Assembly: GCF_003334405.1 (NCBI RefSeq)
Contig: NZ_QOWM01000018.1
Source: Escherichia coli
GTDB lineage: Bacteria > Pseudomonadota > Gammaproteobacteria > Enterobacterales > Enterobacteriaceae
Direction: 5' to 3' (one strand)
DNA length: 64,000 nt
The notes under the pieces were generated by a model. The model saw nothing but the letters and a program-made list of their open reading frames with translations, was not told the DNA's origin and searched no databases. Position numbers and translations under genes: made by a program. Within the stretch, counting starts at the first letter, position 1. The number at the start of each line of letters is the position of its first letter. Below, one piece after another: positions 2,735 to 29,809 of the stretch.

Positions 2735-3559
2735 ATGAGACTGAATACGACCGGTATTGCGGCCCGAATGATGCTCTCGCTGGACAAAAAAGCAATCGGC
2801 GAAAAACTCATCAACGGTCGTCAGATAAACCCGACACCACTGCAGGTCCGTTACCCACAAGGGGTAAGAGAAGTTCTGGGGATAATGAGCGAACAATTAG
2901 CCATATCCACCGCTGATTTAACCCGAATCCTGCTTGAGGATGCTCTTCATAATATGTTTATGCCTGCGGATAACACCACAGGAAACATAATAAGCAGAAT
3001 TGAATACATCATGCTGTCGCATGATATAAATGCGCCATTACTGGCAACATTGCTGTCGCCATGGAATATCCGCTCCACGGTTATACAGGACCCGGCCAGA
3101 CTTGCAGACTATCTTTCAGCTGACGCTCTCGAACATCTTGCTGAATGTTTTAATCTCAATCCGGACTGGCTGAATGGCCATGAAAACTATCCGATAGCGT
3201 TGTCCGGTGAATGGCCAGATACTGCTGATAATTTCAGAATGCTTATTAATGATAGCAGCAACACTGAAGTTATTTTCTGGCATAGTTTCCCCTTCGCAGG
3301 AAACACGAAAAGAGAATATTGCGGGGTAATATTGAGACAGAAAAAAGAAATAAATGGCTCTGTAATATATCCAGCACTATCATTATCACCAACACTTCTG
3401 AACGATGAAAAAAGAAAATGGTTAACTGAATATACAACCAGGCAGAATACAACAATGTCTTTGCGACGTGTTACGTTGAGACCTGGCCTTGCCGGGAACC
3501 TTATTACAGGGCAAATACTACCTGTTAGCTTATTTAATACGTCTTTATTACCCTGGTAA
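2735..3559 (+). CDS. traE: conjugal transfer protein (first gene of tra operon)
   Basis: 274-aa ORF, GGAGG RBS 5 nt upstream; name from position relative to rci/sog (synteny inference). Confidence 0.6.
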   Translation: MRLNTTGIAARMMLSLDKKAIGEKLINGRQINPTPLQVRYPQGVREVLGIMSEQLAISTADLTRILLEDALHNMFMPADNTTGNIISRIEYIMLSHDINAPLLATLLSPWNIRSTVIQDPARLADYLSADALEHLAECFNLNPDWLNGHENYPIALSGEWPDTADNFRMLINDSSNTEVIFWHSFPFAGNTKREYCGVILRQKKEINGSVIYPALSLSPTLLNDEKRKWLTEYTTRQNTTMSLRRVTLRPGLAGNLITGQILPVSLFNTSLLPW

Positions 3560-27666: not shown

Positions 27667-27882
27667 TTACCGATAAATTCGACCAAGTGCTTTAATCGCA
27701 GCAATTTTTATTTCCATATCATCACTTTGACTCAATCTATGTAATTCACGCGTAATGTTCTCCGCCTGACATCGGCCTTCACCTAATGCATAGATCACAG
27801 CAAGTGTAACGTCTTTTGATTTACTCTTCATCATTTCAAACAAGAAAGTATTAGCTATCGCAGGAGGCATGCTCATAATCAA
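27667..27882 (-). CDS. hypothetical small protein
   Basis: 71-aa ORF in AT-rich spacer; no recognisable motif. Confidence 0.3.
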   Translation of the reverse strand: MIMSMPPAIANTFLFEMMKSKSKDVTLAVIYALGEGRCQAENITRELHRLSQSDDMEIKIAAIKALGRIYR

Positions 27883-28207
27883 TCCTCTTCATGAAATAAA
27901 CAATGGCACTCACTTACAAACAGGAGTCCACTATCGCAAGCGACTCAACTTAGTAATATCTCTCAATTTGAATGAAAAAACCAGATGGCATGTGACAGGG
28001 AACCGTCCGCATGATGTCCGTGACTATTTAACCCCATAAGCTGATAAAACATGAATACCGGTATCTCAATGCGAAGAAATAATCTCCGTAGAATCCCCCA
28101 TGAGAAAAATATCATATGGGAGAAAATCGCAATTATCACAGCCAGTGCATTCATTATTTTCGCTGTGCTCTGGCATTAATTATTTTCAACACAAAAAGGA
28201 AAAAACA

Positions 28208-28384
28208 ATGAATCTGGTAGACGCCTTTGTCAAAAAAGTAATATCCGGGCCGTATGAAGAATATGGAAAATGGTGGATAGATGTCGAATACATTTCATGG
28301 GGTGTTCCCGGGAAAACAAGACTGATGTTTGACTCAAAGGAGCAGGCACTGGAAGTTAAGGAAGGGTACAAATTTTTAACGTGA
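28208..28384 (+). CDS. hypothetical small protein
   Basis: 58-aa ORF from ATG 28208 with GGAAAAA RBS, followed by hairpin 28401-28430. Confidence 0.35.
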   Translation: MNLVDAFVKKVISGPYEEYGKWWIDVEYISWGVPGKTRLMFDSKEQALEVKEGYKFLT

Positions 28385-28448
28385 GATCTCTTTTTGTTAA
28401 AGGGCAGGAAGCGGTCACCTCCTGCCCTTAGTTACGTTTCCAGGCTTA

Positions 28449-28544
28449 TCAGTCGATAAGTTCCCGGATCAGTTCCAGAACAGCAATCAGCGCGTTTGCA
28501 ACGGCAACTACTGCCCTGAGAACGATGATTAACAGATTAATCAT
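28449..28544 (-). CDS. candidate small hydrophobic peptide (type I toxin-like), 31 aa MINLLIIVLRAVVAVANALIAVLELIRELID
   Basis: ATG 28544 with GGAG 6 nt upstream; single predicted helix; complementary sRNA-like element nearby (see findings). Confidence 0.3.
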   Translation of the reverse strand: MINLLIIVLRAVVAVANALIAVLELIRELID

Positions 28545-28802
28545 CCGCTTCTCCATCACTGGAGGAAATCACCGTTGCTTACTCTTACATTGCCTGTCAC
28601 AACGGCACTTTCAGTGTTAGTTGAAAAGAGACTTCCTCCTGCCAGAGCACTGAACACAGCACCACCTGTTTGTTCAGCCAGGACTTAAAATCTTGCATCC
28701 ATAGTCCCGATGGATATCACGGCAGAAGTGTCGCCAGACAGAGCTAACCTGCGGATTATAAGGATGGTTGCTATCAAATGAACAGCTCGCTATTATAAGA
28801 AC

Positions 28803-28889
28803 GTTAGTTGAAAAGAGATTACCTCCGGTCAGGGCCACCAACTCTGTAACGGAACAGTAAAAAAACCGACCTCACCAGTCGGTTTTTTT
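28803..28889 (+). ncRNA. candidate ~87-nt sRNA (promoter -35 TTGCTA 28768-28773, -10 TATTAT 28791-28796; intrinsic terminator 28859-28889)
   Basis: sigma70-like promoter with 17-bp spacing, perfect terminator hairpin CCGAC..GTCGG + T7; 5' end 16/16 identical to 28616-28631. Confidence 0.35.
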
Positions 28890-29042
28890 ACATCTGTTGT
28901 TTCTCAAAATCCGCCCGACATGCCCGTCACACCGGGGAAACTCATGCTCTGAATCAGAACCAACCATCTCAACTTTGCCGTCTCCTGAAAAAACTGGCAC
29001 ATTCAGTTCGATAACTACCCATAAATACAGAGAGAAAATCCG

Positions 29043-29294
29043 ATGTCAGAAAAGTGGAGTAAAGAATTCGACTCTTGCTTTCAGGTGGGGAGCATAGAAG
29101 AAATTGCCGATGCTCTCGAGAAACGCAGCGGAAGCGAGGAAAATGCGTTAGCCATGCTGGCAATGACAGCCTTCACACTCATGACCCGACGTGGTATCTG
29201 CGAAATGCAGAACGTGGCCCCCGATGGCAAAGGCATTCGGCTGGAGCTAATGGGCTTCAGGGAAAATGAAACAATACCGGATACGCTTCATTGA
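29043..29294 (+). CDS. hypothetical protein
   Basis: 83-aa ORF convergent with pndA. Confidence 0.35.
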   Translation: MSEKWSKEFDSCFQVGSIEEIADALEKRSGSEENALAMLAMTAFTLMTRRGICEMQNVAPDGKGIRLELMGFRENETIPDTLH

Positions 29295-29365
29295 AGAAGA
29301 AAGGGCGCAATGAGGTCAGCCTTCGCAACAAAGCGGCGGCAGAAAACCTGCCGCCGTGTTGCCCG

Positions 29366-29521
29366 TTAACGTTTAACTTCGTAGGCTAACGTTGCCACAA
29401 GCACTGTGTTTCCCTGCTGGAGCCGGAGTCCGCAAAGCGAATCCCTCACCATCCAAACAAAACACAGAATCGTCACACAGATGACGATTAACATCATTAA
29501 AAACGTTCGCTGTGGCATCAT
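29366..29521 (-). CDS. pndA: Hok/Gef-family type I toxin PndA
   Basis: translated by hand: MMPQRTFLMMLIVICVTILCFVWMVRDSLCGLRLQQGNTVLVATLAYEVKR, GGAGG RBS; not in ORF track (under 60 aa); overlapped by longer pndC/mok-like frame 29373-29657. Confidence 0.8.
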   Translation of the reverse strand: MMPQRTFLMMLIVICVTILCFVWMVRDSLCGLRLQQGNTVLVATLAYEVKR

Positions 29522-29809
29522 AGCCCCTCCATTGCCTTACGGCGGTTATCGGGCTACTATAATGTTGTCTAGGCATTACAGTAGAGCCCTTGGTTGATTG
29601 ATAAAAAAATCTCCAGGGGCTTTCTGCTGTATACCGTCCACAAAACGCTTTCGGCATACAGCCTCAAGCGCCCGCAGCTATTCTAACGACTTTCGTATCT
29701 GCAACAATCCTTTTATCGCACGGCTAATTCCTCTGGTTAGCTCTTATCGCCTGCAAATAAATTTTTAACCTTTCCGTTTGATTTAAATTCCAGAAATGGA
29801 GACTTTGTC

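Follow-up and report, generated by a model that had tools for sequence, protein, structure and literature searches.

On the minus strand of the window, the 64-kb stretch of Escherichia coli DNA analysed here, lies a short gene for a hydrophobic 31-residue peptide, and upstream of it, facing the other way, a gene for a small RNA (sRNA) whose 5' end can pair with the leader of the peptide's mRNA. The two transcription units consist of the following features, given with strand and basis:

28449-28544, minus strand: dqlB coding sequence for the 31-aa hydrophobic toxin MINLLIIVLRAVVAVANALIAVLELIRELID (family model NF041473, RefSeq annotation, pN/pS)
28551-28554, minus strand: Shine-Dalgarno (SD) sequence GGAG of dqlB, counterpart of DinQ 'sequence 4' (read from the sequence; alignment with the K-12 SD G184-G187)
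28392-28748, minus strand: predicted full-length dqlB mRNA of about 357 nt, with the G at 28748 as +1 (aligned to the mapped K-12 dinQ +1)
28755-28760, minus strand: dqlB promoter, -10 TATAAT with a weak -35 only (read from the sequence; 6 nt upstream of the aligned +1)
28400-28429, minus strand: dqlB terminator hairpin, the mRNA 3' end being predicted near 28392 (alignment with the K-12 dinQ terminator)
28803-28891, plus strand: AgrB antitoxin sRNA of about 88 nt, with a 5' single-stranded seed of ~33 nt, stem-loop 1 and terminator (Rfam RF02891)
28768-28796, plus strand: agrB promoter, -35 TTGCTA, 17-nt spacer, -10 TATTAT (promoter scan)
28857-28891, plus strand: AgrB intrinsic terminator with a 14-bp stem, a 7-nt loop and a T run (terminator scan)

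A preliminary description, made from the letters of this DNA, had noticed a minus-strand open reading frame (ORF) of 31-35 codons. The frame is indeed present, running from 28449 to 28559 and reading V-MEKR-MINLLIIVLRAVVAVANALIAVLELIRELID*, while its start is now resolved by homology, which places the true dqlB start at the ATG at 28544 and gives a peptide of 31 aa; the GGAG stands 6 nt upstream of this ATG. The comparison with profiles of known toxin families that the preliminary description had proposed identifies the peptide as a member of NCBIfam NF041473, "DinQ-like type I toxin DqlB", with 67.8 bits (E 5e-19) over positions 1-31 of 31 and against a cut-off of 35 bits. Among 12 plasmid alleles the coding sequence has a mean pN/pS of 0.16, and as pS is 0.44 against a pN of 0.07, dqlB is under purifying selection. 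The window DqlB is identical to the pOXA-48 allele at 25/31 positions and to an IncX3 allele at 26/31, and ends in RELID where the validated toxins end in RQFID or RQYFD. The earlier suggestion that this acidic C-terminus might make the peptide non-toxic is not supported: the terminal D and the E of ...LELIR... are conserved in the family and occur both in the experimentally toxic pOXA-48 allele and in L010, which represents the IncX3 type that was validated on pOXA-484. No further copies of dqlB were found in the 64-kb window.

Transcription of dqlB can be placed through the conserved 5' end of the mRNA, GUUAGCUCUG, which aligns with the mapped +1 of K-12 dinQ; the minus-strand TATAAT that had been proposed to serve the peptide transcript sits 6 nt in front of it. 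The terminator hairpin forms a 13-bp stem in minimum free energy (MFE) folds and its U run is weak, as in K-12; the consensus terminator scan did not flag it at 28400-28429.

The plus-strand unit matches the Rfam family RF02891 (AgrB) at 28804-28891 over its full length (model positions 1-84 of 84) with 58.5 bits, the gathering score being 40. This is the single AgrB match in the 64-kb window, and a second agr gene (agrA) was not found there. The promoter scan recovered the promoter of the preliminary description at its predicted place, and yet promoter-like matches are about as frequent in shuffled sequence (4.0 expected against 5 found), so that the agrB promoter is not significant alone; the promoters of both agrB and dqlB are consensus matches only. 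A matching layout exists upstream of K-12 agrA (TTGCAA...TATTAG) and agrB (TTGCAA...TAGTAT). The terminator is the part of AgrB that is conserved across all loci compared, and of the unit of ~87 nt described before, the terminator was found and the length has shifted to about 88 nt. In this arrangement agrB starts back-to-back with dqlB, about 55 bp upstream of the dqlB mRNA start.

The leader of the predicted dqlB mRNA holds further elements:

28561-28570, minus strand: anti-SD element, counterpart of DinQ 'sequence 3', able to pair with the SD or with element 2 (folding)
28616-28648, minus strand: AgrB target in the 5' leader, containing element 2 (direct repeat of the AgrB 5' end; K-12 alignment; co-variation)
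about 28630-28642, minus strand: element 2, GGCAGGAGGAAGU, inside the AgrB target
28715-28735, minus strand: candidate element 1, GGCGACACUUCUGCCGUGAUA, which in the full-length mRNA could mask either element 2 or the SD (duplex energy)

The target is a direct repeat of the sRNA's own 5' end. In the 64-kb window the 16-mer GTTAGTTGAAAAGAGA is found at two places only, 28616 and 28803, both times on the plus strand, and this exact-match search confirms the earlier observation that the first 16 nt of the sRNA are identical to 28616-28631. The extended complementarity had been counted as about 22 of 26 nt; the repeat exists and the count is 23/26, with a longer stretch of 28/35. Between 28803-28835 and 28616-28648 there are 18 contiguous seed pairs and, with G-U pairs counted, 31/33 paired positions, three of the five mismatches in AgrB positions 1-33 being compatible with G-U pairing. 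Prediction of the RNA-RNA pairing, which had also been proposed, gives -51.0 kcal/mol for the duplex of AgrB(1-36) with the leader, and -70.4 kcal/mol when sRNA and leader are both taken in full, compared with -48.3 +/- 4.2 for shuffled sRNA. In K-12 the duplexes are -62.1 kcal/mol for agrB and -46.6 for agrA, so the window duplex is weaker than that of K-12 agrB and slightly stronger than that of agrA, which does not neutralise DinQ. It falls inside the range of the other cognate duplexes (-44.5 to -63.8 kcal/mol), among them that of an IncX3 representative with -45.3.

This pairing is further highlighted by the comparison with 12 further plasmid loci from IncK2/Z, IncI-gamma/K1, IncF, IncN/X1, IncX3, IncX4 and IncL/M plasmids, in which AgrB was placed by Rfam or by the repeat; for the IncL/M loci L012 and L013 the Rfam AgrB search returned no match at E<=0.01 and the sRNAs were placed by the repeat. 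The AgrB seed varies widely between loci (for example GTTAGTTGAAAAGAGA, GTCAGTTATAGACAGT, GTTAGATACAGACTGT, GTTAGGTGTAGAGTGA and GTCAATTGTTTAGGTG), and the variant present in the seed is always repeated in the leader target. In a 16 x 13 matrix of duplexes over the 13 loci, the cognate mean is -55.5 kcal/mol and the non-cognate mean -33.9, and each sRNA that owns a target pairs best with its own target or with one of the same specificity group. Over the first 20 nt, 18.5 positions are identical with the own target and 11.9 with the others. Transition differences between sRNA and target are compatible with G-U pairing in 29 cases and incompatible in 6, in loci that are non-independent, so that a p-value is indicative only. 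Seed and target thus change together across the 13 loci, that of the window included.

All four 'sequences' of the DinQ leader switch have counterparts in the window leader, although the position of element 1 is inferred, the alignment with K-12 being poor over this stretch. In the MFE fold the anti-SD at 28561-28570 pairs with element 2 at 28630-28639, and in the fold of the full-length mRNA 28721-28725, within element 1, pairs with the SD; when AgrB is bound, 28561-28564 is predicted to pair with the SD. Rather than being a ribosome-binding site, the 'AGGAGG element' that the preliminary description had pointed out in the target corresponds to DinQ 'sequence 2' and pairs with the anti-SD. 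Duplex energies are -18.8 kcal/mol in the window against -23.3 in K-12 for elements 1 and 2, -18.9 kcal/mol in both for elements 2 and 3, and -7.6 against -8.3 for elements 3 and 4. When the target is blocked in silico, the anti-SD switches to the SD and the unpaired probability of the SD drops to at most 0.01, and the K-12 control behaves alike. In the 5'-truncated mRNA the SD is for the most part still paired, its unpaired probability being 0.1-0.24 in the window against 0.27-0.29 in K-12; the predicted 'open' state is weak, and the folding, though consistent with an opening of the SD after 5' truncation of the window mRNA, does not clearly reproduce it.

From the experiments on DinQ and on pOXA-48, together with the folding of the window sequence, the following mechanism can be proposed. 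DqlB would be a membrane-helix toxin encoded behind a structured leader of roughly 200 nt. The full-length mRNA would be translationally inert as its 5' element masks element 2 or the SD, and trimming of the 5' end would allow element 2 (GGCAGGAGGAAGU) to pair with the anti-SD at 28561-28570, thereby freeing the SD. Binding of AgrB to element 2 would instead let the anti-SD close the SD hairpin, and the long duplex of AgrB and leader would provide a substrate for RNase III; a translational switch in the DinQ leader and cleavage by RNase III have been described (PMC5066626). After loss of the plasmid, the short-lived AgrB would decay before the stable toxin mRNA, DqlB would be made, and post-segregational killing or arrest of the plasmid-free cell would follow. 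By analogy with its relatives, the window allele would share their toxicity, RNA half-lives, mRNA processing and killing. In the case of pOXA-48 (IncL), DqlB is toxic and is rescued by agrB, the pair behaving as an addiction module (Baffert et al. 2025, PMC12365149). A 4-nt mismatch in pOXA-48 agrB abolishes the rescue and a compensatory mutation of the leader restores it, and agrB alone suppresses the killing that follows destruction of the plasmid (PMC12365149). The agrB-dqlB pair of the IncX3 plasmid pOXA-484 is toxic, neutralised by agrB and able to stabilise a plasmid (2025, PMC12317039), and in a CRISPRi screen silencing of agrB led to a strong loss of fitness.

The locus very probably represents dqlB/agrB, a type I toxin-antitoxin system, in its IncI1 (R64-type) copy, working as a plasmid addiction module. 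Judged by its sequence, it belongs to the plasmid-borne branch of the dinQ/agrB family of E. coli. The preliminary description had seen a type I toxin peptide with a divergent, partly complementary sRNA that pairs with the 5' leader of the toxin mRNA, and had not named the system; family models, the RefSeq annotation, the homology to K-12 dinQ/agrB and the co-variation of seed and target all bear this out. A megablast search with the 1.8-kb neighbourhood matched 2361 plasmid records, mostly conjugative plasmids of Escherichia and Salmonella, many of which are annotated with "dqlB: DinQ-like type I toxin DqlB". In NZ_CP054216 and in R64 the corresponding position is annotated as dqlB by RefSeq; R64, the IncI1 prototype, carries the same cassette with 99.7% identity, and the window cassette is at least 99% conserved in 464 plasmids, R64 included. 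In an IncI1/B/O plasmid with 99.1% identity the gene order is traY-excA-(HEAT-repeat ORF)-(58-aa ORF)-dqlB-(83-aa ORF)-hok/pnd-trbA. The system is already known: dqlB/agrB is found in the RefSeq annotation, Rfam and NCBIfam, and the family was validated experimentally in 2025. The dql family had been defined from BLAST matches in enterobacterial chromosomes and plasmids, with the same leader mechanism proposed (Kristiansen et al. 2016, PMC5066626), and dqlB is carried by 67.4% of IncI1 and 83.2% of IncB/O/K/Z plasmids (Baffert et al. 2025, PMC12365149). The finding itself matters little, the family being annotated, validated and common on IncI1 plasmids. It does show that, given raw sequence, a first-stage reader can recover a genuine, easily missed type I toxin-antitoxin locus and get its architecture right.

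A different role would follow if the module were SOS-inducible like the chromosomal dinQ, serving as a stress module with LexA-controlled membrane depolarisation instead of a constitutive addiction module. The homology to LexA-regulated dinQ speaks for such a role, as does a published prediction that concerns an identical sequence in the window:

28664-28683, no strand assigned: ACCTGTTTGTTCAGCCAGGA, published candidate LexA site, inside the transcribed leader (PMC12211044, Table 1)

A 2025 study of the IncI1 plasmid pTF2 predicted this site at -119 of dqlB with a heterology index of 11.64; in the proteomics of the same study DqlB was not detected as SOS-induced (PMC12211044). It is the only CTG-N10-CAG site found and lies 65-84 nt into the transcript, whereas the LexA box of K-12 (15/20, at 2981-3000 of the K-12 comparison sequence L002) overlaps the promoter and stretches across the +1. 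It agrees with the LexA consensus at 11/20 positions, and in the leaders of other plasmids its CCTG...CAGG ends alone are conserved while the middle varies, a pattern that suits an RNA stem; 28664-28683 is more likely part of an RNA stem-loop than a LexA site. The search for a LexA operator at the dqlB promoter found none in 28690-28830, with the K-12 control box recovered, and the perfect -10 TATAAT thus stands without an operator. As the candidate site is inside the transcript, has 11/20 agreement and is conserved at its ends only, and as the K-12 box spans the +1, SOS control of the window copy is doubtful. With validated plasmid relatives that are addiction modules (PMC12365149, PMC12317039), a stress module in place of an addiction module appears improbable.

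Slightly less probable still is a decaying or inactive remnant, in which a partly mismatched AgrB resembles AgrA and the RELID-tailed peptide is no longer toxic. This idea draws on an identity between sRNA and target of just 28/35, on a duplex energy near that of the non-neutralising K-12 agrA and on the decay visible in relatives, L014 having a truncated dqlB and L015 and L016 having lost the toxin by deletion. Against it stand the intact ORF, which is identical at 96/96 positions in another lineage and has the low pN/pS given above, the strong conservation of the cassette in 464 plasmids, and the uninterrupted seed of 18 pairs with mostly G-U-compatible mismatches beyond it. Moreover, if the antitoxin failed while the toxin stayed intact, the combination would kill its carrier and be lost. 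Next to no weight falls on the notion that the repeat is a duplicated remnant of a plus-strand coding sequence and the minus-strand ORF a product of chance. Two plus-strand ORFs, 28575-28688 and 28768-28860, do overlap the repeats and share the eight residues LVEKRLPP; both, however, start with TTG, and the shared residues merely translate the 26-nt repeat, for which reason plus-strand coding was rejected. Such a remnant would also have to match a structured RNA family over its full length and face a minus-strand ORF that matches a curated toxin family, and the differences between the repeat copies favour G-U-compatible changes, which points to a constraint on RNA pairing and not on coding. 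An addiction module remains the preferred reading of the locus.

Between near-identical IncI backbones, one part of this module differs strongly:

28550-28835, no strand assigned: hypervariable block comprising the leader, both promoters and the AgrB seed

Compared with the IncI-type plasmids L004 and L008, the window has about 60% identity in the block from 28550 to about 28830/28835 and 97-100% identity in the flanks at 27850-28549 and 28862-29400. The dqlB coding sequences of the window and of these two plasmids agree at 96/96 and 95/96 positions. At least three cassette types exist, each of them common in PLSDB, with about 479, 563 (plus 256 at 80-90% identity) and 108 records. L006 combines an L004-type cassette with a different dqlB coding sequence, and cassette and toxin therefore assort independently. 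Some relatives hold orphan AgrB genes: in L006 a second AgrB is present, with a seed that fails to match the leader of that locus; L014 keeps AgrB beside a truncated dqlB with the target deleted; in L015 dqlB is absent and two AgrB genes that differ in their seeds stand in tandem; and L016 retains AgrB beside the end of a blaTEM transposon, the toxin being deleted.

Since a 4-nt mismatch abolishes neutralisation in pOXA-48 (PMC12365149), the seed variants probably form specificity groups of their own. Beyond the sequence pattern as measured, a selective interpretation of it can be offered tentatively, with somewhat less than an even chance of being correct: plasmids of the IncI complex would swap a specificity cassette of leader, promoters and seed, resulting in mutually non-neutralising addictions, and orphan AgrB genes would act as anti-addiction elements. 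The cassette may be exchanged by recombination between the toxin coding sequence and the AgrB terminator, which are both conserved, and AgrB genes that carry foreign seeds, whether orphan or in tandem (L006, L014, L015, L016), could protect the host or the plasmid from killing by a competitor's DqlB. A non-exhaustive search of the literature did not find this reading of swappable cassettes. Allelic cassettes and orphan AgrB genes bear on competition and displacement among closely related resistance plasmids, and 'antitoxin-in-trans' tools for plasmid curing would need to allow for both.

In architecture the locus resembles zorO/orzO, tisB/istR-1 and shoB/ohsC, which likewise combine a small hydrophobic toxin and a long structured leader that needs processing with a divergent sRNA of limited complementarity to the long 5' UTR. 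No sequence or family match links these systems to the window locus; the Rfam model OrzO-P reaches 33.3 bits against a gathering score of 60 and covers the terminator only. A second type I addiction module, pnd, lies 800 bp away on the same plasmid (pnd/hok-sok at 29366-29673, Rfam sok 134 bits), and for the small ORFs nearby, searches with NCBIfam and PADLOC returned nothing but Hok for PndA. In pnd/sok a cis-antisense RNA overlaps the toxin mRNA, whereas AgrB is non-overlapping, as its gene at 28803-28891 lies upstream of the dqlB +1 at 28748, and pairs through a directly repeated sequence; the distinction from pnd drawn in the preliminary description is upheld.

Much closer is the chromosomal dinQ/agrA/agrB system of K-12 (Weel-Sneve et al. 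2013, PMC3567139), for which the gor-arsR region served as the comparison sequence. The whole locus is collinear, the mRNA alignment has 202/321 identical positions, and shared features include the 5' end GUUAGCUCUG, the SD hairpin, the position of the AgrB site (G88-A119 in K-12, aligned with 28648-28617 in the window), the start codon, the terminator and the architecture of the sRNA. The differences are that the window peptide stays below the cut-off of the DinQ model NF041472 (20.3 bits against 30), that DqlB has 31 aa and an ATG start where K-12 DinQ has 27 aa and a GUG start, and that K-12 has a LexA operator overlapping the promoter and agrA and agrB in tandem, whereas the window has no such operator and one agr gene and is plasmid-borne.

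The closest counterparts are the dqlB/agrB loci of pOXA-48 and pOXA-484, with which the window shares a 31-aa DqlB, a divergent AgrB, a single agr gene and a location on a conjugative plasmid. As in the plasmid dqlB/agrB systems compared, the 5' end of AgrB pairs with ~33-35 nt of the toxin leader at roughly 72-78 nt upstream of the start codon. Compared with the two validated loci, seed and target sequences are different and form a distinct specificity group, and the context between excA and trbA, next to pnd in an IncI1 plasmid, differs as well. On its sequence, the window copy fits the dqlB/agrB family, and its own traits are limited to the seed-target sequence and the residues E28 and L29.

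The IncI backbones of the window and of two aligned IncI-type plasmid loci, L004 and L008, are 97-100% identical outside one block in which identity falls to about 60% (aligned with L004:761-1048 and L008:761-1044).

28550-28835: low-identity block, containing the dqlB leader, both promoters and the AgrB seed

Despite this divergent block, the dqlB toxin CDS (96/96) and the AgrB terminator are kept across the IncI backbones compared, and the three common block alleles are represented in PLSDB by about 479, 563 and 108 records. The dqlB and agrB promoters stand back to back within a span of about 45 bp (28755-28797). In the -10 region of agrB, CTATTATAAG, the minus strand likewise spells TATAAT, and competition between the dqlB and agrB promoters for RNA polymerase is therefore possible.

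A published study of the IncI1 plasmid pTF2 lists the sequence ACCTGTTTGTTCAGCCAGGA as a putative dqlB LexA box, with a heterology index of 11.64 (PMC12211044). In the window it is found at 28664-28683, within the transcribed dqlB leader. Most plasmid dqlB leaders keep its CCTG/CAGG ends but differ in between, a pattern that suggests an RNA stem at this site rather than a LexA operator.

Among the plasmid loci fetched, AgrB genes also occur without a matching toxin, and one IncN/IncX1 plasmid (NZ_CP052879, locus L009) carries two annotated dqlB genes about 560 bp apart, the second of which is a shorter copy of 27 codons.

L015:1330-1700 (NZ_CP028315): tandem pair of AgrB genes with differing seeds, without dqlB
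L016:1500-1604 (pSTU288-1): AgrB gene persisting next to a blaTEM transposon end
L006:1320-1407: second AgrB of this locus, whose seed fits the window-type target and not the target of L006 itself
L014:758-1001: AgrB retained, with the target deleted and dqlB cut to 27 aa
L009:199-294 and 855-938: two dqlB genes, adjoining IS26

The surroundings of dqlB hold three further features. The first has no match in NCBIfam or PADLOC; most of the IncI/K plasmids fetched carry it as an annotated hypothetical protein immediately beside dqlB.

28209-28384, plus strand: 58-aa ORF (MNLVDAFVKK...YKFLT), convergent with dqlB
~28042: site of a gap of about 60 bp, intergenic between a HEAT-repeat ORF and the 58-aa ORF
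29366-29673, minus strand: pndA (Hok-family, 51 aa) and a sok-like RNA

At the gap site the window lacks about 60 bp present in L004 and L008; the same 60-bp length difference is seen with H2 and H4, two plasmid records matched to the dqlB neighbourhood by megablast. PndA scores under the HokA equivalog cut-off (68.7 vs 89), and the sok-like RNA matches Rfam RF01794 with 134 bits. pndA and this RNA make up another type I addiction module, at a distance of about 800 bp from dqlB/agrB.
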